A stretch of 64,000 nt of DNA from Devosia sp. Lineage in GTDB: Bacteria; Pseudomonadota; Alphaproteobacteria; Rhizobiales; Devosiaceae. Where the stretch lies: NCBI RefSeq assembly GCF_028290625.1, contig NZ_JAQGJM010000021.1:253-64252 (forward strand), in the 5' to 3' direction. A program made the translations under genes and the position numbers. Under the pieces are notes generated by a model, which saw only the letters and a program-made list of their open reading frames with translations, was not told the origin of the DNA and did not search any database. How positions within the stretch are numbered: the stretch's first letter is position 1; every line of letters begins with the position of its first letter. Below, piece after piece: positions 16,706 to 34,300 of this stretch.

Positions 16706-16947
16706 GTAAGAGCCACGTACGGCTGTGACGTGGGGAATAAAAGTTCCATGAATCCCCGATAGCCTTCCAGTATGCGGGGCATAAAGTTTCCACTGCCAGG
16801 CGAGGTGCCCGGGGTGGTGAAAAACGACGAAGGCGGCGGGGTTTCCTCGCCGCCAAGTAGCCAAGAGAACATTTAGTGAATCTGCGATTTGACAAAGATC
16901 TGACTTAGCGACCCGGCGACGGGTCACTCATTCAAAGGGCAATTTTG

Positions 16948-18327
16948 ATGAAGAGACTCGTTTTTTGCTTCGACGGCAGCTGGAACCGCATTGACGCAGC
17001 CAATCCAACGAACGTGCTGTTCACGGCCCAGAGCGTTCTCCCGCAGACAAAGGATGGCACGTCGCAGGTCATCTACTACGATGAAGGCGTCGGCACCGGC
17101 GACCACGACAAATTCCGAGGCGGCCTGTTTGGCGAAGGCTTGGTCAAGAACCTGTCGGACGCCTATCGCTTCTTGATTTTCAATCACATGCCAGGCGACG
17201 AGATCTACGTATTCGGGTTCTCGCGTGGCGCGTTCACCGCTCGGTCCTTTGTCGGCCTGATCGGTACGTGCGGCATTCTCCAGCGACCATCGGCCGGCAG
17301 GTCGAACGAGGCGGTCGGGCTCTATAAGAAGCGCGAGGACACTGACGCGTTTCGACAGAAGCTTCTCGAGTTCCGTCGCGATGTCGCGCCGCACATCAGC
17401 GTGTCCGACGCAGAGGATCAGTGGCGAGCGGCTAACGTGCCGGATTACCAGCTGGGCAAATCCCCGTTGCTGAAGATCACCTATCTCGGCGTATGGGATA
17501 CGGTGGGAGCTCTTGGCGTCCCCGACTACATTTGGAACGCGGAAGGCTTCAACAAGGACCACCGCTTCCACGACACCAACCTGAGTCCCATGGTGATGTC
17601 GGCCAGGCACGCCGTCGCGATCGACGAGAGCAAAGCGGACTTCAAGCCGACGCTCTGGGAAAACCTGCAAGAACTCAATGGCGGCCGCGGCAAAGATCCG
17701 AAGGCCGAGGATACTCCATACCAGCAGAAGTGGTTCCCTGGGGTGCATGGCGGCGTGGGTGGCGGCGGCCCGCGTCGAGGCCTTTCCGACCAGGCGTTGG
17801 AATGGATCTGGGATGGCGCCGGCAATGCCGGCCTAGTGTTGGATAGCTCCAAGGGCTCGCCGATCTACAGCCTGTCGCCATCCCACTTGGAATACCTCGA
17901 AAATTCCGAGGAGGAAGAGGGCTTCAGCATCATCGGCACCCTGATGAAGGTCATGCCCAAAACAGTCCGCCAGCCAGGCCCGCAAGGCCTGCACGAGGTC
18001 AGTGTAAGCGCCCAGCGTCGGTGGCACGAAAAGGGAGACAACCTTCCCGAAAAAACACCCTATCGCCCGAAGCCGTTGCAGCATGTCGAGTCGGAGCTTG
18101 ATGCTCTTGATGCCGTCACGTTGGGTATGGGCGAAGACGGCATTGAGTTGGCACCGGACAAGTTCACCGCACATATCGTCGAGCCCGGCGACTCCCTATC
18201 CAAGTTGGCCAAGCGCTATCTTGGCGATGCCCAGCGTTGGCCGGAAATAGCAGCCGCCAACCGGTACAAGATCACAAATCCGGACCTGATCTATGTTGGG
18301 CAATCCCTGCGAATACCCATCAGATGA
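16948..18327 (+). CDS. DUF2235 (Tle1-like alpha/beta hydrolase/phospholipase) protein with C-terminal LysM domain
   Basis: LVFCFDGSWN, YYDEGVGT and VFGFSRGAFTARS (GxSxG nucleophile elbow) are typical of DUF2235. The C-terminal HIVEPGDSLSKLAKRYLGDAQRWPEIAAANRYKITNPDLIYVGQSLRIP is a LysM motif. Confidence 0.85.
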   Translation: MKRLVFCFDGSWNRIDAANPTNVLFTAQSVLPQTKDGTSQVIYYDEGVGTGDHDKFRGGLFGEGLVKNLSDAYRFLIFNHMPGDEIYVFGFSRGAFTARSFVGLIGTCGILQRPSAGRSNEAVGLYKKREDTDAFRQKLLEFRRDVAPHISVSDAEDQWRAANVPDYQLGKSPLLKITYLGVWDTVGALGVPDYIWNAEGFNKDHRFHDTNLSPMVMSARHAVAIDESKADFKPTLWENLQELNGGRGKDPKAEDTPYQQKWFPGVHGGVGGGGPRRGLSDQALEWIWDGAGNAGLVLDSSKGSPIYSLSPSHLEYLENSEEEEGFSIIGTLMKVMPKTVRQPGPQGLHEVSVSAQRRWHEKGDNLPEKTPYRPKPLQHVESELDALDAVTLGMGEDGIELAPDKFTAHIVEPGDSLSKLAKRYLGDAQRWPEIAAANRYKITNPDLIYVGQSLRIPIR

Positions 18328-18431: not shown

Positions 18432-19448
18432 GTGCCGGTACCTCAGGCTCGTTTCGACGAATTGCTGAAAGATATTGAGCCTAGCCCAACCACCGTGAGT
18501 CGGGCATCTGGTGGTCATATCGGTGTTCGGAATCACTTGGCGACGCAGAAGGATTTTAAATCGAAGTTCCTTTATGCATTCTTGTCAGGAAGCTACGCAC
18601 GCGACACCGCTATCAGGCCTGGCACGGTCGATGGTGTTCAGGAAAAGCCAGATGTCGACATTATTGTCGTCACGAACTTCACCAGTCAGGACACGCCCGA
18701 CGCGGTGCTCAACTCAGTTTGCAGGGCACTTGAAGACGGGGGAAATGGCTATGCCGTAGAGCGCATTAATCGCCGGTCGGTGCGTCTGGAAACCTGGCAA
18801 GCCGATATGGACATCGTACCAGTATACGAGCTCGCCAGCGGTGGATACATGATCGCGGATCGCGAGAGTGGCACGTGGAAATTCACCAATCCACCGATGC
18901 ACAGCCAGTGGAGCGTTGAGCGCAACCAGACCTACGGCGACCGTTTCAAGCCCTTGGTCAAGATATTTAAGTGGTGGCGTCGGATCAACCCAAGCGGAAA
19001 GCGACCAAAGGGCTTCGTCCTCGAAGTACTGGTAGGGCGCCATGCGCCGCTTGGGGTAACCCACTATGGCGAAGCTTTCGCGCAGACTCTGGAGAACATT
19101 TACGCTACGCACGGACAAAACGCTGAGCTCGGGCTCAAACCCCAAATCTGGGATCCGGCCGACGGCTCCAACGATATCCTTTCGAAGGTGACCATCGCCC
19201 AATGGCAAGCGTTCGTCGAAAAGGTGCGCGTCTATGCGGGTATCGCGCGGCGCGCCCAGGAAGCAGACGATATGGAAGAGGCGTCACGCCAATGGCGCCG
19301 CGTGTTCGGAGACCGATTCAAGTGGACTGCGAACGCCGCCAAGACCACAGCTACGGGCGCATTCGCATCTGCACCGGCGGCCGCCGGTTACACCTTCCCC
19401 AACACCATGGCGGCGCCCGTCAGCAGTAAGCCCCGAGGTTTTGCTTGA
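18432..19448 (+). CDS. CBASS cGAS/DncV-like nucleotidyltransferase (CD-NTase/SMODS-type)
   Basis: Pol-beta NTase motifs LSGSYARDTAIRP...PDVDIIVV and a third acidic site QADMDIVPV. The gene lies directly upstream of cap2-cap3-cap4 and overlaps cap2 by 4 nt. GTG start. Confidence 0.85.
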   Translation: MPVPQARFDELLKDIEPSPTTVSRASGGHIGVRNHLATQKDFKSKFLYAFLSGSYARDTAIRPGTVDGVQEKPDVDIIVVTNFTSQDTPDAVLNSVCRALEDGGNGYAVERINRRSVRLETWQADMDIVPVYELASGGYMIADRESGTWKFTNPPMHSQWSVERNQTYGDRFKPLVKIFKWWRRINPSGKRPKGFVLEVLVGRHAPLGVTHYGEAFAQTLENIYATHGQNAELGLKPQIWDPADGSNDILSKVTIAQWQAFVEKVRVYAGIARRAQEADDMEEASRQWRRVFGDRFKWTANAAKTTATGAFASAPAAAGYTFPNTMAAPVSSKPRGFA

Positions 19449-21130
19449 GGTTCTGGTGGGTCGACGACACCAATCGTCTCGGCGAAGAGATGCGGAGCGT
19501 TACTGCTCTCGGGTCAAACGAGGCTTGGTTCACCTTGACTCGCTGGCGTTTCTTCGAGGGCATGCTCTGCGCCGAGGTCGTCGTCACGGCGCACGGACAT
19601 GATTACCCAGTACGCTTGATCTATCCCGACCAGTTTCCGGAGGTGCCGGCGTGGGTCGAGCCCCAAGAGAAAGTCCATTGGTCTAGCCATCAGTATGGTG
19701 AATCGGCACTGTGCCTTGAGCTTCGCCCCGACAACTGGCATCCCGCCGCAACCGGCGTGGATGTGCTGCGGAGCGCCCACGACCTTCTCCACATTGAAAA
19801 CCCTTTGGGCGGCGGCACTGTGCGGGCGGAAACGGCACACCAGCCCAATCAAGCCCAGGCATACACCTGGTGGGGGAACCCAGTGATGATTTCAGACGGC
19901 TGCGCCGCCAGAATTCATGCCGGCACGGCCTCTGGGCTGGTAGCTCTCAGGTTCCCGGTTGATGACAAGCTGTGGCCGATCGTCGTACACGACGAGATCG
20001 ACCGAGCTGGGCTGCAGCGGCCACCCACCGCGACCATCGAAAAATGGCAGATCGACGTGCCGGTCTTCGTCTCTACGTCGAGCCCACCCTCCGATGCCGA
20101 TAATCGCGCCGGCTTGGCGGTACTGTTCGATGCAGATCTGATGTTGCAGGTCTTGGCCTCAACAGCGGGAGTCACGCTTTTCGTCAAGGAGGGCGGTATC
20201 GACGCGTACAATCTGCTTCCCGATGGCGCCAGCGAGAAGCGTGTAGTCTACGTTCTGCCGGATGAATTCGGCGCCCGTAGCGGACGTTCCGGCGGCGCGG
20301 CCAGCGAGAGCGCGACCATAGTGGGATGCGGATCAGTCGGTTCCAAGGTGGCAGAATCGCTGCTTCGCTCGGGGATAACTTCGCTGACGCTGGTGGATGG
20401 CGACGTATTCCTCCCAGGTAATCTGGAACGTCATGTACTCGACTGGAACCAAGTTGGGCTCCGCAAAGTCGAAGCACTCAAAAATCGTCTGCTGTCCATT
20501 GTGCCTGGGGCAACGATCAAACCGATCGCCGACAACCTGAGTTGGCAGCGCTCTGCCGAGACTCACGCATGGCAGGTACAAGCCATCGCTGCTTCCAGCA
20601 TCATCATCGACGCGACGGGGGATCCGGCCACTTCCTTGTTCCTCGGAGCCGTAGCAGACGCCAACGAGAAGCCGTTTGTGTCGGTCGAGGTTTTCGAAGG
20701 TGGTATCGGCGCCCTGGTCGCCACCAGTCTTCCCGAACGGGACCCGCCATTCGTCGCGGGACGCGCCAGCTTCCTTGCTTGGTGTGAAGAGAGGGGCAAA
20801 AAGCCGCCGCAGAGCGGTCCACGCCGTTATGAGATGATTTCGGACGGCGTTCCGGTAGTCGCCGACGATGCAGCGATCGAGATTACCGCGGGCAATTGCG
20901 CCAGAGTGGTGCTGGATATCCTCGACGGCCGCCCACAACCTCGATCGGCGGCGTGGCTGCTACTCGGCTACAGCGATCAGTGGCTGTTCGATGGCCATGG
21001 CGACAATATCCGCCTCGATGTTGGCGGGCGATCGCACTCTGGGGAGAAGATGCCCCCCGACTTCGAAGCTCTCGATATCGCCGGCCAGCTTTTCAAGGAA
21101 TGGATAGATGCACTTGATACTGGCAGCTGA
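19445..21130 (+). CDS. cap2: CBASS Cap2 (E2-like + E1/ThiF-like fusion)
   Basis: N-terminal UBC-like domain with HQYGESALCLELRPDNW (E2 Cys). ThiF/E1 Rossmann IVGCGSVGSKVAESLLRSGITSLTLVDGDVFLPGNLERH. TTG start overlapping the CD-NTase stop. Confidence 0.9.
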   Translation: MRFWWVDDTNRLGEEMRSVTALGSNEAWFTLTRWRFFEGMLCAEVVVTAHGHDYPVRLIYPDQFPEVPAWVEPQEKVHWSSHQYGESALCLELRPDNWHPAATGVDVLRSAHDLLHIENPLGGGTVRAETAHQPNQAQAYTWWGNPVMISDGCAARIHAGTASGLVALRFPVDDKLWPIVVHDEIDRAGLQRPPTATIEKWQIDVPVFVSTSSPPSDADNRAGLAVLFDADLMLQVLASTAGVTLFVKEGGIDAYNLLPDGASEKRVVYVLPDEFGARSGRSGGAASESATIVGCGSVGSKVAESLLRSGITSLTLVDGDVFLPGNLERHVLDWNQVGLRKVEALKNRLLSIVPGATIKPIADNLSWQRSAETHAWQVQAIAASSIIIDATGDPATSLFLGAVADANEKPFVSVEVFEGGIGALVATSLPERDPPFVAGRASFLAWCEERGKKPPQSGPRRYEMISDGVPVVADDAAIEITAGNCARVVLDILDGRPQPRSAAWLLLGYSDQWLFDGHGDNIRLDVGGRSHSGEKMPPDFEALDIAGQLFKEWIDALDTGS

Positions 21131-21569
21131 CCAGAAGCACAGATTGGTGGAAGCCCTGACGCTGGCCGGTACCAAAGAGATCGGCGGTCAGTTGTTCGGC
21201 GAACTCCTCGAGCCATCGAAGTTCCTCATCACCGAACTGGTCGTGCAGGCGAGACCCGGATCCTTCGCCCGGTTCGTGGTCGATCTCTTCCAAGCCGCTC
21301 GAGAAGCAATGCGGTTCTTCGACCGCACGGCGCACCGATACGTCGCCTTCAACTATATCGGAGAATGGCATAGCCATCCGAGCTTCGCGGTCAGGCCCAG
21401 TTCGACCGATGTGCAGACGATGCGAGGTCTCGTTTTGGAGCCCGATTTCCCAGGAAATTTCGCGGTTCTGGTCATCGTTCGGCTCGACGTTGACGAATTG
21501 ACTGTTGGCAGCTGGGTATTCGATCCACAAGGCCGCGAGAGCGAAGCGACGTTCGAGGTGCGGACGTGA
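21108..21569 (+). CDS. cap3: CBASS Cap3 (JAB/JAMM isopeptidase)
   Basis: JAMM motif EWHSHPSFAVRPSSTDVQTM (HxHx10SxxD) plus an upstream Glu in KEIGGQLFGE. Overlaps the cap2 end. Confidence 0.9.
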   Translation: MHLILAADQKHRLVEALTLAGTKEIGGQLFGELLEPSKFLITELVVQARPGSFARFVVDLFQAAREAMRFFDRTAHRYVAFNYIGEWHSHPSFAVRPSSTDVQTMRGLVLEPDFPGNFAVLVIVRLDVDELTVGSWVFDPQGRESEATFEVRT

Positions 21570-22978
21570 ACGATACAAAAGGCCCCACTCTCATCGACGC
21601 TCGTGGCATGGGCGGCATCATCGCCATAGATGGCTTCGATTACCAGCTCTGGGACTGCTTGGCCCGTATTCCTTCTTGGGTATCTAACCCAGTCTTCGAA
21701 CAACTGATCTTCGAGGGCCTAGAGGATCATGAAGCCAAGTTCTTTTCACCGCATAGTCCTCACCGAGCGGTGCTCGATAGGTACCAGGCCAAGGCCAGCA
21801 CACTGCAGCCTGCTGGGGTGAAAGAGGTCTTCGAAAATTTCCAGACCTATGATGAGGCGCATCCCAGCACCGCCCGGGTGCACACGCTGGTGATGCCGTC
21901 GCTTCCAGCGACATTGTCGTGGTTCACGAGTGACAAGAACCGTGTCCGAAAAGCACGGCCGTTTTACGCGCCCTTCAACACCATCACGGCGGCCAACGAA
22001 GACGGACTTCGCTCCACGATCGTTTCGACCTATCCTGGACCTTTAGGTGAATTCGTTGCCGACACCGTCGAGGTGCACGAACGCAATATGCCCGATCTTG
22101 CGAATGCGATGGCAACCTTCACCACGCAATTCAATATTGTATTTCCGCAGCTCGACGTCTCGTCGCGCAAAGTGGAGGCGGCGTTCGACGCTCTGGCCAA
22201 GCTGGTCAGAAATTCTGTGGGCGCGCCCATCGGTCGGGCAATCCTGATCGAGACGTTGGAAACGGCCATTGGAACATCCCTGCCTTTGCCGATGGCATTT
22301 CCTCTCAATGTGAGATCGGACAGGAACGAACAGGACGAAGCCAGTCTGGAGATCGATGCATCAGGTTTTTCCGGCGGCGACGCCGGCTACCCAGCTCCAC
22401 CGGTTTGGACCACCGATCTGTTGACCCCTCTGAGCGCCACATCCCAATGGCTGCGTCGACATGACGTTGTACGCATCGCGCCTAGAGGATCGTATCGCTT
22501 GACCACCGCATTTGCACTTGGATGGTCGTTCAGGTCGGCAATCGGCTTTGAGATCGATATTCCTACGAGGGACAGTCTCTGGCCCACCGATGACAGGCCG
22601 GTCGAGGGTTCACTGCCCGATTGGTCCATTCGACCGGCCACTCGTTTGCATGGCGGCAGGCTGCAGATCGCCATCGGCGTCATCCGGGATCCAACTGCAA
22701 CCTTGGTTGCATCGACCGAGATACCCGAAGACGCGATCATGTCTTTACATTTGCCCAGCGCCATGATGTCGGCGAAAGCTTCACAGGCCTCAGTCGGCCA
22801 TATCAAGCACAAGATCGATCAGGCAGTGTCCAGTCTACGCCCCGTGGGCATCGACATGTACTTCGTTGGACCAGCTGCGTTCGCCGTTGCCCTTGGTCAT
22901 CGCTGGAATGCGTTCCCGCCAACGCAACTTCATGAGTTCGTCGCGAACAAATATTCACCGACCGCGATCCTCGATTGA
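21566..22978 (+). CDS. cap4: CBASS effector, Cap4-like (N-terminal PD-(D/E)xK nuclease of DUF4297 type + C-terminal SAVED-like sensor)
   Basis: N-terminal GGIIAIDGFDYQLWD, FEGLEDHEAKF and RYQAKAS (nuclease motifs). The C-terminal half is roughly 250 aa with SAVED-like alternating beta/alpha segments (IAPRGSYRLTTAFALGWSF). GTGA overlap with cap3. Confidence 0.75.
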   Translation: MNDTKGPTLIDARGMGGIIAIDGFDYQLWDCLARIPSWVSNPVFEQLIFEGLEDHEAKFFSPHSPHRAVLDRYQAKASTLQPAGVKEVFENFQTYDEAHPSTARVHTLVMPSLPATLSWFTSDKNRVRKARPFYAPFNTITAANEDGLRSTIVSTYPGPLGEFVADTVEVHERNMPDLANAMATFTTQFNIVFPQLDVSSRKVEAAFDALAKLVRNSVGAPIGRAILIETLETAIGTSLPLPMAFPLNVRSDRNEQDEASLEIDASGFSGGDAGYPAPPVWTTDLLTPLSATSQWLRRHDVVRIAPRGSYRLTTAFALGWSFRSAIGFEIDIPTRDSLWPTDDRPVEGSLPDWSIRPATRLHGGRLQIAIGVIRDPTATLVASTEIPEDAIMSLHLPSAMMSAKASQASVGHIKHKIDQAVSSLRPVGIDMYFVGPAAFAVALGHRWNAFPPTQLHEFVANKYSPTAILD

Positions 22979-23173
22979 GCGAGTGAGCGCTGCGACCGTC
23001 TTTACCGTTTTGGCACACGATGCGGCCCCATTGCATTCGTGCCATGGGTCCGTCTAAGTTGTTGGTAGGTCGAGCAGCTCTGGTCGTGGTGTCGGTATTT
23101 TCGCCCACTCAGCCCGAGAGTGGCGTAACTATTCACTGCCAGCGAAAGCTTCCCTCACGATCAAGGTGACTGC

Positions 23174-24409
23174 GTGGACTATGAAGAAGATTGTCCACCC
23201 GTAACCGGCAATCTGGCAAAGGTCGTCAAGATCGATCACGGAGCCGGTGTGATGCACGCCCGTCTGCTCGACGGGCGCACGGCGCAATGGACGGGCATGA
23301 CCGGAGACCTGCCAGAAGTCGGTGATGTTCTCCTCCTGACCGACAATCGTTGGCGGCAAGCCGACCCGGACGCCTGGACGACCTACAACTCCACCGCGAT
23401 CGTGAAGAACGTGATGGAGGACGGTACGGTGCTGCTCGATGACGGTTTTCGGATCGTGCCGATCGCAAACCCCTTGGACATCGAGGTCGCTCCGGAAAGC
23501 ACCGTTGAATACAACGACATTGACGGCATAGTGCGGTCGCTCTCGGACCAACCGATCAGAAGTGCCAGGGGTCAGCCGGAGATCGACTATTCGACCTCGG
23601 ATTTTCTGGTCGACAGCGCTGCCAGCGGATTGACGTTCGCGGACTTCGGTGGGTATCCGCACGTCATCGATCGTGCTCGCGAGCTCATCGAGACGCAGTT
23701 GAAGCGGCGAGACCTTCTCGACAGGATCGGCGCAAGGCCCGTGAAGGGGATCCTTTTCACCGGTCTGCCGGGAACGGGGAAAACCTTTCTGGCCAAGATC
23801 GTTGCGGCCGAGTCAGGTGCCGCTTTCTTTCTGGTGAGCGGGCCCTCGATAGTGAGCAAATGGGTCGGCGGCTCGGAAGGTACGCTACGCAGGATATTCG
23901 AGGACGCGGCAGATCATCCAAGCGAAAAGGCCATAATCTTTTTCGACGAGATCGACAGCATCGCGGAGCGGCGAACTGGGGACTCGCACGAGGCGTCGAA
24001 GCGACTCGTCGCGCAATTGCTGACGTTGATGGACGGCTTCGACGACAAAGGGCGCAACGTCGTGGTCATCGCTGCTACCAATCGCGTGGACTCTCTCGAC
24101 CCCGCATTGACCAGACCGGGACGTTTCGACTGGGAGATCGAATTCGGTCTGCCGACTCTGGAGGATAGGCTTCAGATCCTACTCGTCTCGGCAAGAACCC
24201 ACAGAATATCCGATGACCTTCATTTCGGCGAAATAGCCCGAGCCACTGAGGGATGGGCTGCTGCTAAACTCACCTCGCTGTGGAGTGAGGCCGCGCTGAT
24301 TGCGGCCGGAGATGGACGGGATTTCATTGCGGGGGAGGATATGGATCAGGCCTTCGAACGCGTGGCTTCTCGTCCCAGGCGAGGCGAAACCGCGGGAGAC
24401 ACCGCATGA
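23174..24409 (+). CDS. AAA+ ATPase (classic CDC48/FtsH-clade AAA domain) with ~180-aa N-terminal beta-rich domain
   Basis: Walker A GLPGTGKTFLAKIVAAE, Walker B AIIFFDEIDS, sensor-1/SRH VVVIAATNRVDSLDPALTRPGRFD. GTG start is uncertain. Confidence 0.85.
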   Translation: MDYEEDCPPVTGNLAKVVKIDHGAGVMHARLLDGRTAQWTGMTGDLPEVGDVLLLTDNRWRQADPDAWTTYNSTAIVKNVMEDGTVLLDDGFRIVPIANPLDIEVAPESTVEYNDIDGIVRSLSDQPIRSARGQPEIDYSTSDFLVDSAASGLTFADFGGYPHVIDRARELIETQLKRRDLLDRIGARPVKGILFTGLPGTGKTFLAKIVAAESGAAFFLVSGPSIVSKWVGGSEGTLRRIFEDAADHPSEKAIIFFDEIDSIAERRTGDSHEASKRLVAQLLTLMDGFDDKGRNVVVIAATNRVDSLDPALTRPGRFDWEIEFGLPTLEDRLQILLVSARTHRISDDLHFGEIARATEGWAAAKLTSLWSEAALIAAGDGRDFIAGEDMDQAFERVASRPRRGETAGDTA

Positions 24410-25749
24410 GGTTGCTGGAGCGGTTCAAGCGTTTATTCAACAAGAGGAAACCTACGCCTCCCCGTGTCGTTGTCGTGAATCGCAGTCTTTTGCGAGAGTT
24501 TGTCTATCTCGATGAGGTCAGCCTGCGAAGCCTGCTCTCTTCGCAGACTGGCGGGGTCACCGACAGCACTTCCGATGAAATTACGAGAGCGGCCGAAGCG
24601 GAGATAACCGGCGGCTTTGGGGCCACCTCGCCTGTGTTGAACGCTGAGGTCGGATCCAGATATCAGACCAGCAACAGCAGCACGCTTCAGACTTCGCGGA
24701 AGGCCACCGTGCAATCGTGGTTCCGCGAACTACTCGCCATCAGCGGCCTTCGCCTGATCGAAGTAGCGGAGGCGCCGCCGGATGTCGCAGAGTTGGACGA
24801 GGTGATTGCTGGCTCGCCTTCGCTAGGCGCAATAGGCGCCGCCCACCTGCGCCGTGGCGAATTGGTGGAATTTCGAGTGAAGCTCTCCGCGGACCCGGTG
24901 TTCCACATGAGCACAATGGTCACTGAATTCGCCGGTATGGCCGAGGACTTCCCAGGCAAACTGGCGCCTGATGCCGGCAAGGCGCTCGCTGAAGTGGAAC
25001 CATTGAACCGGATCCTGAGCAAACTCCTTGCCGGGCTCATTCCCATCCGCGGCGAGGCTGTTGACTACCGCGTGGCGACAGTGAGGGGACAGGACTGGCT
25101 GGTGCACAAGGCTATCGCTGAGAAGTTCGATCTTCCCAGCCGCCCTTTGATAATCGTAGGGGTCACCGAGCACTTGGCGTACTGGAAAGACATTCGGCGC
25201 GTATTGTTCTCCCAGGCCGAATTCACGATCCTCTGTCGAGTCTCCCGCAGCTTACTGCAGCCCACATGGACGCCGGTTAAGTTGGCGGACCTGTTCAAAA
25301 TGATCGCGCCCGATTTCGTCCAACAGATCAATGAAGCGAGCCTACTCTCGGTAAACCCCCAACAACGACCGAACGCTCAAGCTCCGGCGAACGCGGTCAT
25401 CCGCCCAGCTTTGAAGCACTACTCCACGAAACTGCTGAAGGTCGCGAAGTACAGCATCAGCAAGGAGCAGAAGGCCGTAGTGGGTGAACTGATCGAAAAC
25501 AGCTGCTCGGAGCAGTTGAACGCGGCGCAGGAGCGTCAGGCTTTCCGAATGATGAGGCAGTTGGTCGAGAGTTGGGTTCCGGTGGCAATCAGTCCGGAGC
25601 AAGACCTGGCTCTGAGGCAATCCGCCCGCAAGCAGGCAGAATCCAGACCAGCTTCGGCGGTCCGTTCTCGCAATATGGCGCGCTTGGAGCCCAGCATGGA
25701 GCCGCCTCCTGCTCTACTGGATGTAGAGGTGGTCGCCATATATTGGTGA
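24406..25749 (+). CDS. Uncharacterised 447-aa protein translationally coupled to the AAA+ ATPase (possibly DUF6414/DolA-like)
   Basis: ATGA overlap with the upstream gene. N-terminal LREFVYLDEVSLRSLLSSQTGGV followed by a Ser/Thr-rich segment and a helical C-terminus. No catalytic motif or TM segment recognised. Confidence 0.7.
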   Translation: MRLLERFKRLFNKRKPTPPRVVVVNRSLLREFVYLDEVSLRSLLSSQTGGVTDSTSDEITRAAEAEITGGFGATSPVLNAEVGSRYQTSNSSTLQTSRKATVQSWFRELLAISGLRLIEVAEAPPDVAELDEVIAGSPSLGAIGAAHLRRGELVEFRVKLSADPVFHMSTMVTEFAGMAEDFPGKLAPDAGKALAEVEPLNRILSKLLAGLIPIRGEAVDYRVATVRGQDWLVHKAIAEKFDLPSRPLIIVGVTEHLAYWKDIRRVLFSQAEFTILCRVSRSLLQPTWTPVKLADLFKMIAPDFVQQINEASLLSVNPQQRPNAQAPANAVIRPALKHYSTKLLKVAKYSISKEQKAVVGELIENSCSEQLNAAQERQAFRMMRQLVESWVPVAISPEQDLALRQSARKQAESRPASAVRSRNMARLEPSMEPPPALLDVEVVAIYW

Positions 25750-26150
25750 TATCGGACCGAGTGAAGCAGGACTCACGCCAACACCAGTATCGCGCGGCCC
25801 ACCCATACGCGATCGGACTATTGTTTCCGCCTGTCGCCGGGTCGCACGGCTGTCTGAGCGGCAAATCAGAGATCGTTGCCCAGGTAAAACGGGGGACATT
25901 GATCATCCCCACACATGAGTCAGGCCCTTGGTACGGAGTAGATATGACCAACGGGAGTACCGCATGTGTTCACAGCGAGTTTCTTGCGCAGCTCCGGTAA
26001 GTGTTCTCCACTCAAGTATGCGGACGCAGGGTGCCTACCCTGTTGTCCATCGATGCGTTCGTTGCGCGGATCTCGAACTTTGTGCGTGGCTGGCCGATGA
26101 AAATAGCCTAGTTGCAACTCTTAGGCATACAACGGTTATCTCTTCAAACT

Positions 26151-26180
26151 TGTCAGAAACTCGCCTATATGTATCTGACA
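26151..26180. promoter_or_regulatory. Inverted repeat upstream of abiEi (candidate autoregulatory operator)
   Basis: tgtcaga-N16-tctgaca, ending 15 nt before the abiEi ATG. AbiEi antitoxins are known to bind inverted repeats in their own promoters. Confidence 0.4.
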
Positions 26181-26194
26181 GAAAGGATTGCAAC

Positions 26195-26785
26195 ATGTCG
26201 GTAGTGGAAGAAGTGCGAGGGGCCATTAAAGGCAAGCGCAGCGGATCGGTGATCAGTGCCAGCATGTTTGCAAACATCGGCTCTCGCGAGGCGGTCGATC
26301 AAGCGCTCTCTCGTTTACGGAAGTCAGGAGAGTTGATGCGGGTTGCCCGCGGAATATATGTGCGGCCCGTCAATGGGAAGTTTGGCACTTATCCTCCGCA
26401 CTCCAGCGAAGTCGTGCGGTCGCTTAAGCACCATCAGCGAAAGCGGATCGTCGAGCATGGCCTGTCTGCGGCCAACCAGTTCGGCCTGACGACTCAGCAG
26501 CCACTTCGGCAAATCTATCTGACCAATGGTAGCAATCAGGTGCTCAAACTCGGCTCAAATCCGGTGATTCTGAGACATGCGCCAGAGTGGCAAACCATTT
26601 TCGCAAACCGGCCTGCTGGTGCCGCTTTGCGGGCGTTGTCGTATGTCGGCAGATCGGGCGCAGTGAATGCCGCACGGCAGATTAAAGCTCAGCTTCCTGA
26701 ACCGGAATGGGAAGTCTTGACGAAGGCGAAGAAACGATTTCCGGCTTGGGTAGCAAACGCAGTCGTGCAGGCTTCTAATGGCTGA
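26195..26785 (+). CDS. abiEi: Type IV toxin-antitoxin system AbiEi-family antitoxin
   Basis: SVISASMFANIGSREAVDQALSRLRKSGELMRVARGIYVRP is the AbiEi wHTH pattern. Start moved to ATG 26195. Overlaps abiEii by 8 nt. Confidence 0.85.
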   Translation: MSVVEEVRGAIKGKRSGSVISASMFANIGSREAVDQALSRLRKSGELMRVARGIYVRPVNGKFGTYPPHSSEVVRSLKHHQRKRIVEHGLSAANQFGLTTQQPLRQIYLTNGSNQVLKLGSNPVILRHAPEWQTIFANRPAGAALRALSYVGRSGAVNAARQIKAQLPEPEWEVLTKAKKRFPAWVANAVVQASNG

Positions 26786-27812
26786 CCCGTTTTTTCGCTT
26801 GAGCGAGCGGGACCGGATTGATGCCCTCGGTGCCGCAGGTGAACAATTAGGAAGACTCCCATTTATCCTTGAAAAGGACGTGATGGTTGTTTGGTGCCTC
26901 AGTGCTGTTTTTTCCTCGGCAGATGGATCCCACCTGTCTTTTAAAGGCGGTACTTCTCTGTCCAAAGTGTTTCGCCTGATCGATAGATTCTCAGAGGACA
27001 TCGACCTGACCTACGACATCAGGCGATTGATCGGCGATAAATTCGATATTCCTGTGAATGGGCTCCCTGCCACTAAGAGCGAGGGGCGCCGATGGACGGA
27101 TGAGGTGAGAGTTCGGCTTCCCGAATGGATCGAAGCGGAACTCATCCCAATTCTAAGCCGACAAGCGGAAATGGACGGGCTGAAACTGACGTTTCGCCAG
27201 ACCACCAAGGAAACTCTGAATGTCGACTATGCGCCTTTGCAAGCTTCCAGAGGGACCTACGTCAAACCCTCTGTTCTTCTGGAATTCGGCGCGCGTTCAA
27301 CCGGTGAGCCGGTTGAAGATCACTTAGTAGCATGCGATGCAGCCGAGCGTTTGCCTGGGATCTCGTTCCCTGAAGCTCGCGTAAGAGCCATGCAGGTTGG
27401 TCGAACATTTTGGGAAAAGGCGACGGCGGCCCACGTATACACATTGCAGGACACCCCAAAGGGTGACCGGTTTTCACGCCACTGGCATGACCTGCACTTT
27501 ATTGCCAAATCGGGATATTTCGATAGCGCCGTCACCAATCACGCTCTTGCCCAAACCGTGGCTGATCACAAGGCTCTTTTTTTTGCCGAGCGAGAGACGC
27601 CTGAAAAGTGGATCGACTACGGTGCTGCCGTAAACGGGGCGCTTAAGATCGTCCCGAGCGGACAGGCGCGTGATGCACTAGAGGCGGACTATGCCGAAAT
27701 GAAGGAGGCAGGGATTTTATCCCAGGACGCGCCAGACTTTAAGACAATCATGGACACTTGCTTGAACATAGAGCGCCGCGCCAACGAAATAGATTCCCCA
27801 TCACTGGAGTGA
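26778..27812 (+). CDS. abiEii: AbiEii/AbiGii-family nucleotidyltransferase toxin
   Basis: LSFKGGTSLSKVFRLIDRFSEDIDLTYD is the NTase GS..D.D motif typical of AbiEii. Confidence 0.9.
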   Translation: MADPFFRLSERDRIDALGAAGEQLGRLPFILEKDVMVVWCLSAVFSSADGSHLSFKGGTSLSKVFRLIDRFSEDIDLTYDIRRLIGDKFDIPVNGLPATKSEGRRWTDEVRVRLPEWIEAELIPILSRQAEMDGLKLTFRQTTKETLNVDYAPLQASRGTYVKPSVLLEFGARSTGEPVEDHLVACDAAERLPGISFPEARVRAMQVGRTFWEKATAAHVYTLQDTPKGDRFSRHWHDLHFIAKSGYFDSAVTNHALAQTVADHKALFFAERETPEKWIDYGAAVNGALKIVPSGQARDALEADYAEMKEAGILSQDAPDFKTIMDTCLNIERRANEIDSPSLE

Positions 27813-28108: not shown

Positions 28109-30946
28109 TCAACCGAACTCGTTTGGTCCTTTGATGATTAGTGTCCTGCGCTTTGCATGCACTCGCAGTTTCAGGCGAGAGAGCATCTCGAGAACAACAT
28201 CCACTGCGCGGTACGAAAAGAGGGGTGCGTCCGTTTTTTGATTATCGGACACGAGATCGGTGATCACACTGACGACGGCAATAGGCAATTCCTTGGAGAT
28301 TGCATTGGCCGCCTGAATAGCACCGGCTGCTCCTACGTCGAGAGCCGCCACGTTTCTGGCAACAGAGCTGATGACACTCGCGTCCACATATCCAAGCGCG
28401 GAACTGACTGATGCGAGCGATCCCACATGAAGGCGCCCGAAACGACCATCAATGGCCATGTCATGCCCCAGGCGCTGCAGGAGGAGCGGCGTCACAAGGA
28501 CTTGCGGCCGAATGTGATTGAGCTCATTTGACATGAACGTTGGTTCGAAGATTAGCACTTCCGACGAAATGACGACGTCGCCGATGCTCTGATTGGGCCT
28601 AAGTCCGCCACAGCGGCTTACGATGAAAACCCCGTCCGGGCGATTGTCGATCAGCATTGAGGTCATCGCAATCGCGGCGGCAACGCTGTTGGCTTCGCGA
28701 AGGATAGTGCACGTAACTCTAACTCCGTCGCGCGTTACGCCTCGGAAGTAGAGACGGCCGGACCGCGAGAACCGGCTGACGCGCAACAACCTCTCGAAGA
28801 ACGCGCTCGCCGCTTCATCGCCCTCAAGCAGAATTCCGATACGTGGTTGGCTGGAAACCTCGTCTATTGTCACGGGCTGAAGATCGTGCCGTTCCAACAC
28901 CCCGTTTGCGTCGACAGCGAGTGCGCTCCTCACTCCACCGTCCCTGACCACGGTGCCGATCACGATGCCGAGGACGTTGCCTTGCTGATCGGACACGACT
29001 GCTCCAGAGCCGCCCTCCTCAACCGGTGAATCGAGCGAGACCTCGAACACGTCGCGGTACCTTCGCTTGATCATGCCGGTGGATTGGATGTCCATGGTAA
29101 TCTCGACAGCGTCGATGCTGCCCTCGATCATCTTGGTAGGCATTTCAACGAACGCCCGCGCACCAGGTTGGCGAAAACCAAGTGCGCGCGGAGAAAATGA
29201 GAGTTCCCTTTCGACCCGGAGGATCGCCCAATCCGTGCTTCCCTCATGGATGTCAAGGGTGAGTGGGATGCGCCGCCCATCAACGACCATCTCGATGCTG
29301 TCTTGGAGAATGGTTGGAAACGCATGGGCGACGGTGACCGCGAATAGCTGGCCGGTGACGTCGGCTCCGAACAGGCCAACAGTCGCACGTCGCTCGCCAT
29401 TGACAAGGAGTTCGTGTCCGCTGGTGTAGTTCGCCGAAGTCAACTTGATTTCCTCAACTTCGCGCACGACCACCTCGAACCCTTCGATTTTGTGAGGGAG
29501 GTTCGGTTTTGCTCCCTTTTCCACCGTAACGACGATTGCCTGCTTGATTCCCACCCCGATAACACCCTGCTTCGTCATGAGCGCATCCCGTTCTGCATCG
29601 AGGACGTCATGGATCGTGGGGGCTGTATCAACCGGCTGTGCCGAACCTAGTGTGGCATCGTCATTTGGCGCGGCTTGGTGGGGCGAAGCCGGTGCCGATT
29701 TAACAACGGCTCGGTTCTGGTAGGCGGTCTCGACCACCTCGATCAAGGCGTTTGCGCCTGCCTCCCAAGAGCATTTTGATTCCAAATGGCCACGCAGACG
29801 CGGGTAGAAATATGAGTCGCCTGAGCCGTCGATAAGAAGGGGCAGCGTCGCGTCTGCGAACCGTTGCGCTGCCGCGTGCGCATCTCCTGAGGTATCGACG
29901 ACGCATGACCCAAAATCTTGACCTGCCTCGGCGCCGGTTTCAAGTATGAGTTCGGCTATTCCGCTCTGCCTCGAAACGACTATCGGAGCTCCAAACGACA
30001 TCGCCTCGCACGCGACTAAGCCATATCCTTCTTCGCGCGAAGGCATTAGAAACGCAGTGGCGCCGCGCAGGTCGGCGTTCAGGTTCTGCTTATCGGTAGT
30101 GTAAGGGCGCACCACAATCTCAGGATTGCCGCCTGCCTTCTCCGCGAGACGCACGAGCGCTTCCTGAAGCTTTTCGGGCTCGCTCTCTGCTCCCCGCACG
30201 ACGAAACGAGGTTTGAGTATTCTGGATCTAGTCTGTGCGCTCGTCGTCCATTCTTTATCGATGATGCCGGCCATAAGAGCGAATATGTCGAGGCCCTTTA
30301 CGCCGACGCTTTCAGTTCGTCCAAGGCAGACTACCGTGGGCTGCTCGGGCGCTGCGTTGCGGACGGGTTGCTCAGGCGAGAGCCCGCAGTCTATGCGATG
30401 GACCTTGTTGTGGTCGAGTTGATGCGCCTTGAAAGTGTCCTTGGTAACGCGCGTGAGACGCGGTCCCACACAAAAAACCAGGTCCGCACTTTTGGCCGCT
30501 TCAAGTTCGGCTCTTTGCTTCTCCTCGCGCTCGGAAACGTACCGGTCCTTCTTGCCCTCTTTCATGCCTTCCGTGCGCATCGGGTCCATGTGGATAAATT
30601 GGACGGTATTGGCTTGTTTGAAATAGGTGTTGCGAAGCAGAAGCGCCTGCTTGCCGGAGAAAGAGCTGTGGCCGACCACGGCCAAGACCGAACTCGGATC
30701 GATCCGTCGAACATCTTCGGATAGCATCACGCTTTCCCATTTGTCGGATTCCGCACCGTGTAGCAACGTGACGTTGTTGTTGTACGCCTGCTCGACCTCG
30801 CTCTTGTCGGCGAAGCTGACGACCGCAATGCAGTTGAGGTCGGGCCTTGTCTTGGCCAACGCTAATAGCAACTCGCGATTGACCGTCTGTATGCCGCCCT
30901 TGCTGCTGTCCCAGCGATTCATGACGAAGATGATGCTTTGCTTCAT
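28109..30946 (-). CDS. Triple-fusion protein: GT4-type glycosyltransferase + trypsin-like serine protease + PNP/MTAN-like nucleosidase domain (divergent)
   Basis: Residues 1-~420 are GT-B/GT4, with FLMPSREEGYGLVACEAMSFGAPIV (E-x7-E). Residues ~450-690 carry an S1 triad: AVTVAHAF (His), STDWAILRV (Asp), EEGGSGAVVSDQQGNVLGIVIG (Ser). Residues ~700-945 align by eye to E. coli MTAN: SVAAAIAMTSMLIDNRPDGVFIVSRCGGLRPNQSIGDVVIS and NVAALDVGAAGAIQAA..AVVSVITDLVSD. The VEME acidic motif is replaced by LDVG. Confidence 0.8.
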   Translation of the reverse strand: MKQSIIFVMNRWDSSKGGIQTVNRELLLALAKTRPDLNCIAVVSFADKSEVEQAYNNNVTLLHGAESDKWESVMLSEDVRRIDPSSVLAVVGHSSFSGKQALLLRNTYFKQANTVQFIHMDPMRTEGMKEGKKDRYVSEREEKQRAELEAAKSADLVFCVGPRLTRVTKDTFKAHQLDHNKVHRIDCGLSPEQPVRNAAPEQPTVVCLGRTESVGVKGLDIFALMAGIIDKEWTTSAQTRSRILKPRFVVRGAESEPEKLQEALVRLAEKAGGNPEIVVRPYTTDKQNLNADLRGATAFLMPSREEGYGLVACEAMSFGAPIVVSRQSGIAELILETGAEAGQDFGSCVVDTSGDAHAAAQRFADATLPLLIDGSGDSYFYPRLRGHLESKCSWEAGANALIEVVETAYQNRAVVKSAPASPHQAAPNDDATLGSAQPVDTAPTIHDVLDAERDALMTKQGVIGVGIKQAIVVTVEKGAKPNLPHKIEGFEVVVREVEEIKLTSANYTSGHELLVNGERRATVGLFGADVTGQLFAVTVAHAFPTILQDSIEMVVDGRRIPLTLDIHEGSTDWAILRVERELSFSPRALGFRQPGARAFVEMPTKMIEGSIDAVEITMDIQSTGMIKRRYRDVFEVSLDSPVEEGGSGAVVSDQQGNVLGIVIGTVVRDGGVRSALAVDANGVLERHDLQPVTIDEVSSQPRIGILLEGDEAASAFFERLLRVSRFSRSGRLYFRGVTRDGVRVTCTILREANSVAAAIAMTSMLIDNRPDGVFIVSRCGGLRPNQSIGDVVISSEVLIFEPTFMSNELNHIRPQVLVTPLLLQRLGHDMAIDGRFGRLHVGSLASVSSALGYVDASVISSVARNVAALDVGAAGAIQAANAISKELPIAVVSVITDLVSDNQKTDAPLFSYRAVDVVLEMLSRLKLRVHAKRRTLIIKGPNEFG

Positions 30947-31314: not shown

Positions 31315-34300
31315 ATGACCGAGTCGAAGTATTTTGACATTGTGGTTGTCGTGCCGCTTGAAGAGGAACTGCTTGAGGTCATCGAGCAGTTTCCGAGCAT
31401 TGAAGACCGAAGCTCCACCACGACGTGGTGTCATGTAGTCGATTCCGGGAAGCCTGGCATATCGATGCTCATCGTCCAGCAGCAGACGATGGGCAAAACC
31501 GCCGCTATAAATGCTGCGAATTTCGTTCTTTCAAAGTACGAAGCCGGCCTTATGGTCTGCCTAGGCATTGCTGGAAGTTTGAGCGGCGACGCCCGCCTGG
31601 CCAGCGTGTGCTATTCTGGCAGCATCATCGACGTCCTGGACAATGCGAAATTCGTCGACACCGACGACGGCGCCGCCGACACCGAACTTTCCCCGACCAA
31701 TTACGACACGCCGGACGAATTCACGCAGGCGTTCAATTATATCCGCACACAACCGGCCCTGTTCAAGTTTCACCAGGACTGGCAAGAACAGCGCGCTTTG
31801 GTCGCAAAAGAACTGGTTCCGCATGAAGTGCCCGCTCCTGGTGGTGGTACGGAACAAATTGGCAAGCCAACGTCCAAGGGCGGCGTGATCGTGTGCGGCT
31901 CGGTCAGTAAGAGCCACGTGTATAATGCCAAATTGCGAAAAATCGATCGCGCTTTGCTTGCGGTTGAAACGGAGTCCGGAGGGGTGTTCTCGCAAGCCCA
32001 TTTCCATGGCAGCGTTCCTGCTATCGCAGTGCGCGGCATTTCCGACTACGCCGACAAAGACAAAGGCCGGCTCGAGGATGCCAGCAAAGGTGGCGTGCGC
32101 CGGCTGGCTGCATCCAACGCGGCTTCGTTTCTTAAGCTCCAGATCGTCTGCAACACCTATTTTCATGCTGCGCTCGAAAGGCGCCGCACGGGCAGGCAAC
32201 AAGCTTTAGTCCTGGATAACCGGCCGGTAGTAGTTCAACCGCTCAGCGAACTGATGCTCGGGTTAGGTATTGCTGTGGATGCCGCACTGCGAAAACTCTC
32301 ACCCGAATACAAACTTCAGCCACAAGGCTATCATCTTCCTCTGCCGCGCATCCGTCGCCCAAACGCAACCAATGCGATCGGGACCAAGAGCGATAGCTCA
32401 CCCACCGATGTTCTCGACGCGCTGCAGGTTCAGGAAAAAATCCTCGTGAGCCTACCGCGCACATATCCGGACCACAGCCTCGCCTGGGTCATGGCCGACG
32501 ACTTGCTCACGCAGGAAATTGACGGACGACAGCCGGTACCGGTCGTGATTAACGGCGACGACATCCGGGGAAAGCGGTTCGGCTTTAACGACGTCGTCGA
32601 TATCGACCTGAACGCAATCGAGGCCATGGACGGCACTCAACTAGTTCTTATCGTTGATAACATTCCATTTGCTTCAAAGCACAGAATGGAACAGATCGTC
32701 GCCGAGATCGAGCGCTACAGCAGTGCAAAATTCATTTTTGTGACGAGGGCGGGAGACGCCGGCCTCCTCGATGAGTCAGACTTTCTAACACAGTCGGGCG
32801 CAGAGCACTTCCAGATCTGCGCTGTGTCTTTTTTCGAAATCGCGCATTTTATCCAGAAGAATTTTGGGATGACGGGCGCTGAAGCGGAGGTTGTCGCACT
32901 TCGACTTCGCGATACGTTTGAACGGTTTGATCTCGATGCTCATCCCACATACTTTGCTGGCATCCCGAAGGAAACCCTGACCGCGCTACTGCAGGCGAAC
33001 CGCCGGTCCGAACTCATTCAGCTAGCGGTCGATGGCTTCCTGACCTTCATAGTGGCTGGCGATCGCGCAGACGTCTCGCTCAGTCGGTCCACCAGGGCGC
33101 GTTTTCTGCGAAAACTTGTGGTGGAAATCAACGTCGAAAAGCGAGCCTTTGAAGAAGCCGATCTGGTTGCTTTCACGCGTGAGTTTGCAGAACTGCACGA
33201 TTTCGACATCGACCCACTGGCGTTTATCAATGGGTTCGTTGACCAAGGCATCATGCATTTTGAAGGCGGCAGGGCCCGTGTCTCGTTGCCGTTTGTGGAA
33301 TCGTATTTGCTTGCTTCGGAGTTGCACGCATCGTCAGACCTCGCACTGCGCTATTTTGATCCTGGCGACGATAACTTCGATACTGTCACTTTCGACCTTT
33401 ATGCAGAAATCGGTGCGTCGGCCGATCTCGTGCAGAGGATCGAAGCTGGACTCGAGCAGTGCATGATCGCCCTCAAGGAAAAGAACCCGGGCAAGCATAT
33501 ACTTCTCACTGACAGCATTTCCCCGGCAAATCTGCAAAAACCCGAACGAGCAGGAGCTTTGCGCAAGCGACTGCAAAAGGCTGCTGACGCAGTGCGGGAC
33601 GGAAAGGACGAGAGCCAGGAAAAGCAGCGCATGCTTGATCTGAGCGAAAAGATCCGGGAGGCCTCCGGCCGGCAGCAAAAAAGCCAGGATGGTGAAAGCG
33701 ATAAAGCTGGCGATATGGACAGAACGTTTGTGCCGCTCAACGATGCCGCGCGTCACTGGGTTATCGCCACTTTGCTCCTCGGTTCCGGCGCGGAGCACTT
33801 GAACGCCAGAACAAAACGCGCGCTAAGCACGTCGATTATCAGCAGCGCCGCTTTGATCATTGATGAATGGTGTCGCCAGCAGCAAAAAATCGACTTTGCT
33901 GCGATCAAGCGGAAAATGACCACTGACGAAGCCTTGGCTGACCTGCCTGGCGGGGAGGACATTGAAGAAAAGCGCAAGTTCATCGACGGGGGCGTCGATA
34001 TTCTGGAGTACACCGCGCTTGCCGAGCCGTTGCGACGCGTTTTGGGCTTCCTTTGCGAGCAAGCTAGACACCGCGTTCTCGCACCAAGCGTTGAGGCTGC
34101 CACAGTCGACGGCGCCATCGAAAAGATAATCCACGGCACCTGGCTAGCCGATATCGACACGGCCCGCGGCAAGGACAAACTCCGTCAGGCAATCATCGAT
34201 CTGCCGACAGCACAATTCTTTCGGGTTATCCTCGCCTCCCATTACCTGGCTCGGGTCTATTGGAATCACTGGCGTAAAGAGGATCGATTGCACCTGCTGA

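Follow-up and report, generated by a model that had tools for sequence, protein, structure and literature searches.

A mobile AAA+ ATPase–DUF6414 gene pair from Devosia as a candidate anti-phage module of a Dodola-like kind

We describe a two-gene cassette in a stretch of 64,000 nucleotides from a Devosia species (contig NZ_JAQGJM010000021.1, positions 253 to 64,252), which we refer to as the window. The cassette lies on the forward strand at positions 23016–25749 and encodes an AAA+ ATPase followed by a protein of the DUF6414 family. We consider it most likely to be an anti-phage or abortive-infection (Abi) module that is akin to Dodola but built in a distinct way that has not been described before, and give this reading a probability of roughly 0.6. 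A defense function as such is predicted and likely, and the specific mechanism set out below is speculative and less likely than not. A preliminary description of the same DNA, made from the sequence alone, had proposed a Dodola-like or new two-gene module. That proposal is supported and can be narrowed to a Dodola-like variant since the PADLOC models for the Dodola proteins DolA and DolB miss both proteins; because the ATPase clade and the gene order also differ, we file the pair as a distinct variant and not as Dodola itself.

The ATPase gene runs from 23174 to 24409 (+) and encodes 411 amino acids from a GTG start, the same start that an independent gene caller placed on this metagenomic contig. 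The DUF6414 gene runs from 24406 to 25749 (+) and encodes 447 amino acids. Its ATG start codon and the TGA stop codon of the ATPase gene share the four nucleotides ATGA (24406–24409, +), an overlap that is read as translational coupling. These coordinates, the overlap and the ATPase motifs GLPGTGKT, IIFFDEID and ATNR...RPGRFD had all been given in the preliminary description and were found as quoted.

The second protein is unambiguously a member of DUF6414, in a long form. It matches PF19952 with 198.4 bits against a cut-off of 25 (E = 2.7e-58), and the profile is covered in full (positions 1–283 of 283) over residues 29–446, so that the resemblance suggested earlier is borne out by the Pfam profile. 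As had also been suggested, the protein has neither a transmembrane-like segment (the highest Kyte–Doolittle mean over 19 residues is 0.99) nor a recognizable catalytic motif. Scans with the PADLOC (to E ≤ 10) and NCBIfam models gave no match, and a sequence search of the PDB gave no relative. A total of 703 homologues of ~450 amino acids were found. In an exhaustive profile search of 1.84 billion representatives, 725 clusters at 50% identity were returned, 467 of them at E ≤ 1e-30; almost all have lengths of 440–465 amino acids, and domain fusions are absent from the best 150.

The product of the first gene belongs to the classic clade of AAA+ ATPases (Cdc48/PAN/FtsH-like) and has a single AAA+ module. 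It matches the Pfam family AAA (PF00004) with 145.6 bits (E = 1.5e-42) and AAA_2 with just 16.5 bits, while AAA_lid_3 reaches 26.5 bits against the Pfam cut-off of 27.2, the lid helices being present in the AlphaFold2 (AF2) model. The NCBIfam models for CDC48, PAN and FtsH score 190–229 bits, all under the family cut-offs; for the PAN models the values are 187–224 bits against cut-offs of 500–750 (for example 224 against 500). The top sequence matches in the PDB are VAT, Cdc48 and p97. The AF2 model has a mean predicted local distance difference test score (pLDDT) of 82.8 and consists of an all-beta N-terminal domain, a disordered linker, and the alpha/beta and lid subdomains of the AAA+ module. 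With the whole ATPase model rather than the N-domain alone as the query, the best Foldseek matches were Rpt subunits of the 26S proteasome, at a high global root-mean-square deviation; as 340–410 of the 411 columns are aligned, the alignment extends into the N-domain.

Counted over 81 family members, the catalytic motifs of the ATPase are almost invariant. In the Walker A motif GLPGTGKT (residues 197–204; 23762–23785, +) G200, G202, K203 and T204 are conserved in 81 of 81 sequences, and in the Walker B motif IIFFDEID (residues 254–261; 23933–23956, +) D258 and E259 are present in 80. The sensor 1 motif and second region of homology, AATNR...RPGRFD (residues 300–319; 24071–24130, +), contain the sensor-1 Asn N303 and the two Arg fingers R314 and R317, each found in 80 of 81. 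The inter-subunit signaling motif DGF (residues 287–289; 24032–24040, +) is slightly more variable (D287 in 80, G288 in 76 and F289 in 74), as is pore loop 1, S-K-W-V-G (residues 228–232; 23855–23869, +), which has the aromatic-hydrophobic-Gly pattern and the family form K-W-[VYL]-G in the family alignment, with K229 in 77, W230 in 74 (otherwise F or Y) and G232 in 79. From what is established for classic-clade AAA+ translocases, this loop may be read as the one that threads the substrate. In classic-clade AAA+ machines such a motif set marks an active hexamer that translocates polypeptides. The window ATPase is thus presumably a catalytically competent, hexameric protein translocase with a single AAA+ ring.

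The AAA+ module is preceded by an all-beta domain at residues 13–124 (23210–23545, +), defined by the AF2 secondary structure with block pLDDT values of 78–90 and predicted to form two small beta-barrel-like subdomains (residues 13–62 and 73–124). The preliminary description had seen an N-terminal domain here and took it to be unique and ~180 amino acids long. The domain is indeed present, but it comprises ~112 amino acids followed by a linker and is found family-wide, with a mean identity of ~30% compared with 59% for the ATPase core. Scans of this domain with Pfam and PADLOC (the latter to E ≤ 10) gave no match; the alignment of the NCBIfam Pan1 model to the ATPase begins at residue 75.

The window ATPase shares its clade, the Walker A and B motifs, the double Arg finger, DGF and AAA_lid_3 with PAN, Rpt1–6, Mpa/ARC and Cdc48/VAT, and it resembles the proteasomal ATPases and Cdc48 in the aromatic pore loop 1 and in the predicted all-beta N-domain ahead of the ATPase ring. 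Cdc48 has two AAA+ rings, whereas the window ATPase has one. We picture its build as similar to that of a proteasomal ATPase, with an all-beta, possibly OB-like ring of N-domains above this one AAA+ ring. Unlike the proteasomal ATPases, it lacks an N-terminal coiled coil (none is seen in the AF2 model, which has no helix ahead of residue 141), a C-terminal HbYX (hydrophobic residue, tyrosine, any residue) tail (the protein ends ...RRGETAGDTA) and an associated peptidase, its dedicated partner being the DUF6414 protein. It has no protease domain of its own.

The two genes form a genuine module that is conserved far beyond chance. We scanned one genome per species, which gave 79 distinct genome loci and, with four plasmid loci, 83 in all. 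The 79 genome loci carry DUF6414 relatives with 28–93% identity to the window protein, in Alphaproteobacteria, Actinomycetota, Chloroflexota, Acidobacteriota, Ignavibacteria and one betaproteobacterium, and the plasmid copies, which have the same arrangement, come from the haloarchaea Halobacterium PHS3, Haloarcula and Salinigranum and from one Corynebacterium plasmid. At every locus a same-strand ATPase homologue lies directly upstream of the DUF6414 gene, and it is full-length, N-domain included, wherever the contig permits. The preliminary description had made the case for a functional module depend on conservation of the pair in other genomes, and had suspected a gene order different from that of Dodola; the pair is present, ATPase first, at 83 of 83 loci. 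A four-nucleotide NTGA start/stop overlap joins the genes in 48 of the 83 pairs, and in most of the others the gap or overlap is within 14 nucleotides. The pairwise identities of the two proteins are strongly correlated (r = 0.87 over 75 loci), a value reached by none of 1000 permutations in a Mantel test; the two proteins have diverged together.

The module also moves as a unit. Alphaproteobacteria and Actinomycetota stand side by side, with equal identity, among the pairs most closely related to that of the window, which argues for horizontal transfer across phyla. A second copy, in a Devosia metagenome-assembled genome (MAG; locus L001), is 95% identical, and here the homology spans 23016–25749 only, that is a 158-nucleotide leader and both genes, with unrelated flanks on either side; the pair is therefore a self-contained mobile cassette. 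The 112 genes next to the pair at these loci include no family that is seen more than two or three times, and a third component is thus not in evidence. A search of phage genomes for DUF6414 gave no match and hence no sign of a phage origin or a phage-borne copy.

This pattern bears on the idea that the two genes are a housekeeping or stress-related proteostasis pair that hitch-hikes in variable regions and consists of a specialized unfoldase and its own adaptor or substrate. In both sequence and fold the ATPase is closest to the quality-control unfoldases Cdc48, VAT, PAN and Rpt, and some of the neighbors are housekeeping genes. Against this stand a patchy and rare distribution (the 725 clusters noted above), cross-phylum transfer, cassette-exact mobility, carriage on plasmids, a genomic location that is not fixed, the lack of a protease partner and the hypervariable helical region of the DUF6414 protein, which is typical of conflict genes. 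We regard this explanation as improbable.

Two of the loci depart from the usual arrangement. In an Acidimicrobiales MAG (L078) ~1.3 kb separates the stretches that code for the ATPase N-domain (3584–3943) and for the AAA core (5283–5867), and this split gene suggests an insertion or disruption. At another locus (L072, 5915–6500) the two genes are separated by 583 nucleotides rather than overlapping. Both may be decaying copies of the pair.

In the window the pair sits between a type II operon of the cyclic oligonucleotide-based anti-phage signaling system (CBASS; CD-NTase, Cap2, Cap3 and a SAVED-endonuclease, 18432–22978) and the AbiEi/AbiEii genes (26198–27812), as the preliminary description had stated. 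Elsewhere it adjoins a SIR2-like gene (L001), has a DDE transposase beside it (L088) or closes a co-oriented operon of type I restriction–modification (RM) and AAA_13 genes (L085). Other flanking genes match GajB, type II, III and IV restriction endonucleases, MADS components, CBASS cyclases, AbiTii, AriA, PycTIR and several PADLOC candidate systems, together with integrases and recombinases. The neighborhood is that of a defense-island passenger.

The same-strand position, with the ATPase gene beginning 196 nucleotides downstream of the Cap4 stop at 22978, could be taken to mean that the ATPase is a TRIP13/Cap6-like accessory of the upstream CBASS and the DUF6414 protein a second CBASS effector. 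In type III CBASS, TRIP13/Cap6 works alongside a HORMA protein; the window ATPase has just weak PADLOC matches to TRIP13 (46 bits) and there is no HORMA gene, the operon here being of type II with a Cap2 E1/E2 and a Cap3 JAB protein. At nearly all other loci the pair occurs without CBASS, cyclase models finding no more than one to a few matches in the 112 flanking genes, and the homology with L001 starts at 23016, past the CBASS operon. An accessory role in CBASS is effectively refuted by this synteny and is scarcely credible.

At the related loci L085, L086 and L087 (1–9365) a run of co-oriented genes encodes HsdS, an AAA_13 protein, HsdR, an SMC/AAA_13 protein, the ATPase and the DUF6414 protein, the last labeled Mycobacteroides abscessus by NCBI. 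Neighboring genes in this run abut or overlap at their stops and starts, which suggests that the pair is co-transcribed with the type I restriction system.

The known system with which the pair has most in common is Dodola. Dodola was verified in Bacillus cereus FM1, where DolA has 256 and DolB 362 amino acids (Millman et al., Table S2, 10.1101/2022.05.11.491447); the two genes (DolA, 2625022794; DolB, 2625022793) lie on the minus strand, so that dolA comes first (10.1101/2022.05.11.491447). The system protects B. subtilis (10.1101/2022.05.11.491447; PMC11514479) and S. thermophilus (10.1101/2024.10.22.618286). Like Dodola, the window pair consists of an adjacent DUF6414 protein and single-module AAA+ protein (~360–410 amino acids), and the window ATPase, like DolB, bears an additional domain at its N-terminus as well as an aromatic loop. 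DolA and the window DUF6414 protein share the N-terminal motif VY[LF]DE.S (VYFDESS in DolA), and within the first ~100 residues of each a G/S/T-rich segment leads into a helix. Both pairs occur in defense contexts. Given this common architecture, a DUF6414 protein with an AAA+ ATPase that bears an N-domain and an aromatic loop, it would be reasonable to expect the window pair to work like Dodola.

There are also differences. DolB scores 72 bits with AAA_2 and 38.9 bits with PF00004, the reverse of the window ATPase (16.5 and 145.6 bits), and by these profile scores the two ATPases belong to different AAA+ clades, as the preliminary description had thought they might: the window ATPase to the classic, Rpt/PAN/Cdc48-like clade and DolB to an AAA_2/ClpB-D2-like one. 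The order is dolA then dolB in Dodola and ATPase then DUF6414 in the window pair. At 447 amino acids the window DUF6414 protein is ~190 longer than DolA (256–260), and it scores 198 bits with PF19952 compared with 78 bits for the verified DolA and 103 bits for a B. thuringiensis copy. The ~130-residue variable helical region of the long form is largely missing from the 256-residue DolA, and the strict ..IYW end is likewise a feature of the long form. In BLASTP and hhalign comparisons with DolA only the N-terminal ~50 residues of the long form align (31% over 49), with marginal significance, and as only this motif is alignable no per-residue map of the extra ~190 amino acids onto DolA can be drawn.

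The phylogenetic range differs too. The window pair occurs in Alphaproteobacteria, Actinomycetota, Chloroflexota, Acidobacteriota and haloarchaea, and Dodola mainly in Firmicutes. The Dodola census in Table S21 of the original study is dominated by Firmicutes (623 mentions), with 51 mentions of Actinobacteria in ~25 rows and with no Alphaproteobacteria and no Euryarchaeota (10.1101/2022.05.11.491447). It omits Saccharomonospora halophila 8, Brevundimonas bacteroides DSM 4726 and Corynebacterium marinum DSM 44953 (10.1101/2022.05.11.491447), although each of these genomes has the long-form pair and is listed elsewhere among the tables of that study. None of the constructs tested by Millman et al. 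has the long-form DUF6414 motif (10.1101/2022.05.11.491447), and in the literature on DUF6414, the Dodola mechanism and AAA+ unfoldases in anti-phage defense we found no description of this pairing.

Taken as defined, a DolA-type and a DolB-type protein in that order, Dodola does not include the window pair, which differs in three tested features. The pair could nevertheless be plain Dodola, with orthologous DolA and DolB missed by the hidden Markov models through divergence. The shared two-gene make-up of a DUF6414 protein and a single-module AAA+ protein with an extra N-domain, and the shared VY[LF]DE.S motif, speak for this. However, the PADLOC models for DolA (PDLC03837) and DolB (PDLC03838), which reach 256 and 412 bits with verified DolA and DolB, give no match to the window proteins at E ≤ 10; the ATPases, of different clades, are 23% identical in the P-loop core only and are non-orthologous; and the reversed order, the unequal DUF6414 lengths and a Firmicutes-dominated census that omits genomes with the pair all point the same way. 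Plain Dodola is accordingly a very improbable explanation.

Several of these results also weigh against our own reading of the pair as a Dodola-like defense module, namely the lack of PADLOC matches and the non-orthologous ATPases, to which may be added that a profile built from the 83 long-form DUF6414 sequences scores ~1 bit on DolA. Transfer of function from Dodola would rest solely on the broad Pfam family DUF6414, and we found no mechanistic paper on Dodola itself in the literature. The AF2 model of the DUF6414 protein is of moderate confidence (mean pLDDT 72.3, predicted template modeling score 0.57); compared with the PDB and BFVD it gave no fold match (best E = 0.28–0.35, template modeling score about 0.1), and no catalytic or membrane-active motif is recognizable in the protein. 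Many flanking genes of the pair are housekeeping genes, and the enrichment of defense genes among the neighbors is semi-quantitative, being based on approximate open reading frame (ORF) calls and without a genome-wide background.

A second two-gene module built around a classic-clade AAA+ protein is IetAS, which Gao et al. 2020 are said to have reported as a defense system. The IetA models are the best PADLOC match of the window ATPase (110 bits); they cover residues 170–374 only, and the N-domain bears no relation to them. With the NCBIfam equivalog model IteA, whose cut-off is 510 bits, the window ATPase reaches 95.5 bits. The partner of IetA is the subtilisin-like serine protease IetS, whereas that of the window ATPase is a DUF6414 protein, with no adjacent protease gene.

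IetAS was originally described as an addiction-type module, and a corresponding explanation can be framed for the window pair: a toxin–antitoxin (TA) or addiction module that stabilizes mobile elements, in which a DUF6414 toxin is held in check by continuous ATPase remodeling, or the reverse, and which has no dedicated anti-phage role. The compact coupled cassette, its presence on plasmids and in variable islands beside integrases, recombinases and transposases, the IetA-like ATPase core and the adjoining AbiE-type TA genes are what would be expected of such a module. Neither protein, however, resembles a known toxin or antitoxin, both are large in a way that is atypical of TA pairs, and the association with RM, CBASS and Gabija is a defense-island pattern. 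We consider a pure addiction module plausible but unlikely, and TA-like and Abi functions are in any case not mutually exclusive.

In its general logic the pair is also analogous to the HerA-effector systems (SIR2-HerA, DUF4297-HerA), in which a gene for a hexameric ATPase adjoins an effector gene and the products form a complex. HerA is an FtsK/HerA-type ATPase of the additional-strand, catalytic-glutamate (ASCE) group that acts on DNA, unlike the protein translocases of the classic AAA+ clade. In the HerA systems the effectors are recognizable NADases or nucleases, whereas DUF6414 has no recognizable catalytic fold.

With the parts list, its conservation and its context as the data, we infer for the preferred Dodola-like defense module the formation of a complex, sensor and effector roles, a trigger and an outcome for phage and cell. 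The ATPase and the DUF6414 protein would form a stoichiometric complex, in which the ATPase would dock on or engage the near-invariant LREFVYLDE segment, the flexible basic tail or the S/T-rich loop, and the C-terminal ..IYW of the DUF6414 protein. Residues 299–432 of the latter, the hypervariable helical region, would recognize a phage-derived cue, and ATP-driven remodeling or unfolding would then follow. This could either turn the DUF6414 protein into an active effector, toxic or oligomeric in nature, or unfold a phage or host protein that the DUF6414 protein presents; either outcome would block phage propagation.

As two unrelated AAA+ clades have been recruited beside DUF6414, it is DUF6414 that appears to be the defining component, and one that needs a generic ATP-driven unfoldase. 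It is possible, with chances slightly short of even, that DUF6414 is the core of a broader superfamily of unfoldase-dependent immune systems, that in the branch described here, found in bacteria and haloarchaea, an Rpt-like AAA+ protein with an OB-like N-ring has taken the place of DolB by non-orthologous displacement and acts on or through the DUF6414 protein by way of the docking elements named above, and that this branch is a distinct defense system, one which the PADLOC Dodola models miss. The recurrence of DUF6414 with an unrelated translocase clade points to what Dodola-type systems need, a generic unfoldase and DUF6414. The ~700 sequence clusters mark a family that is missed by the PADLOC Dodola models and was left out of the original census, and that would, if validated, belong in catalogues of defense systems. 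The pair would, in that case, join the immune modules of bacteria and archaea that have a proteasome-type ATPase at their core.

The long DUF6414 protein can be divided into regions of very different conservation, all encoded on the forward strand. A basic N-terminal tail (residues 1–28; 24406–24489, +) has 18% mean identity, 30% Arg+Lys, low pLDDT and a median net charge of +6 across the family. It is followed by the hallmark motif LREFVYLDEVSLRSLLSSQTG (residues 29–49; 24490–24552, +), predicted as a beta-strand and helix, which at 77% mean pairwise identity across the 83 loci, haloarchaea included, is more conserved than the ATPase core. Residues 50–83 form a flexible loop rich in A, S, G and T (26% mean identity), with pLDDT below 50 over residues 50–94. 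A conserved Ser/Thr/Gln-rich segment (residues 84–106; 24655–24723, +) lies partly in this low-confidence stretch; mean identity is 44% over residues 84–112, and T88, N90, S91, Q95, T96, K99, Q103, S104 and F106 are invariant in our DUF6414 alignment A1.

The alpha/beta core (residues 148–298; 24847–25299, +) has 26–53% identity by block, with block pLDDT of 70–92 over residues 141–290, and contains invariant positions; it includes YWKDIRRVLF (259–268) and W-T-P-V-K (288–292). The variable helical region (residues 299–432; 25300–25701, +) is mostly helices in the AF2 model and has 20% mean identity; tblastn alignments to several archaeal copies and the Corynebacterium plasmid copy cover residues 29 to ~305 only. 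The protein closes with a C-terminal strand (residues 433–447, followed by the stop; 25702–25749, +) of 57% mean identity, in which residues 436–446 are confidently predicted as a strand; alignment A1 shows no variation at D439, A444, Y446 and W447. The terminus [AV][IV]YW is exact from Alphaproteobacteria to Haloarcula and Salinigranum, and the window protein ends A-I-Y-W. This end was considered as a proteasome-style HbYX docking tail and rejected, the AF2 model placing IYW in a confident, buried beta-strand. Most host lineages, for example Alphaproteobacteria, are moreover not known to have a 20S proteasome.

The leader of the cassette (23016–23173, +) is the presumed promoter and 5' untranslated region; it begins where homology with the Devosia MAG locus (94.8% at the nucleotide level) begins, and a Shine–Dalgarno-like AAGGTGA at 23163–23169 precedes the GTG of the ATPase gene. 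A scan for sigma-70 consensus sequences found no convincing promoter on the + strand, which leaves the cassette promoter as inferred only, and a promoter/terminator scan did no better than on shuffled sequence. The sequencing runs that contain the cassette sequence are DNA metagenomes only.

An 84-residue ORF at 25746–26000 (+), whose GTG start overlaps the DUF6414 stop as GTGA, is marked as a gene by the gene caller used for the source contig; it was considered as a third gene and rejected. It has no homologue at the 83 loci, the 95%-identical Devosia copy among them, and is probably spurious for this reason. Apart from it the ~450-nucleotide stretch at 25750–26197, ahead of AbiEi, carries no annotation. 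The AbiEi protein (26198–26785, +) is of the DUF6088 type (93 bits) with a short AbiEi_4 match only, and its start is uncertain, as the ORF extends upstream to a TTG at 25928 while the gene caller gives 196 amino acids.

Directly upstream of the CBASS operon, a gene at 16945–18327 (+) encodes a Tle1-like phospholipase catalytic domain of the type VI secretion system (T6SS; 242 bits) fused to a C-terminal LysM domain. It lies downstream of a class II ribonucleotide reductase gene (12992–16705), and no T6SS genes were seen in its vicinity. At two other loci, too, the AAA+/DUF6414 pair is flanked by a gene for a ribonucleotide reductase large subunit.

Downstream of AbiE, the gene at 28109–30946 (−) encodes a 945-residue protein with a GT4-conflict domain (PF20706, 282 bits), a weak match to a trypsin-like peptidase and a PNP_UDP_1 phosphorylase/nucleosidase domain. 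The divergently oriented gene at 31315–34431 (+) encodes a protein of 1038 residues, with an N-terminal PNP_UDP_1 domain followed by ~750 residues without a known domain. Both weakly match the CBASS "PN-superfamily" effector model, and they are likely to be uncharacterized conflict-system genes.

A second AAA+ gene in the window, at 35226–37196 (−), encodes 656 residues with a ~270-residue N-terminal region without a known domain, a PF00004 module with an IetA-like core (87 bits, PADLOC) and a fragmentary match to the FtsH-type Peptidase_M41. A similar AAA+M41 protein of 640 residues is encoded in Rhizobium sp. YS-1r (L088, 2771–4693, −) ~2 kb upstream of the AAA+/DUF6414 pair. The protein may be a soluble FtsH-like protease with a role in conflict, or the co-occurrence may be due to chance. 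Further along, a Tn7/Tn5053-like transposition module (39657–44628, +) contains a TnsB-like gene (weak match), TniB (PF05621) and TniQ (PF06527), and is followed by a weakly HipA_2-like gene (44890–45657) and a DUF3037 gene (45503–46474).

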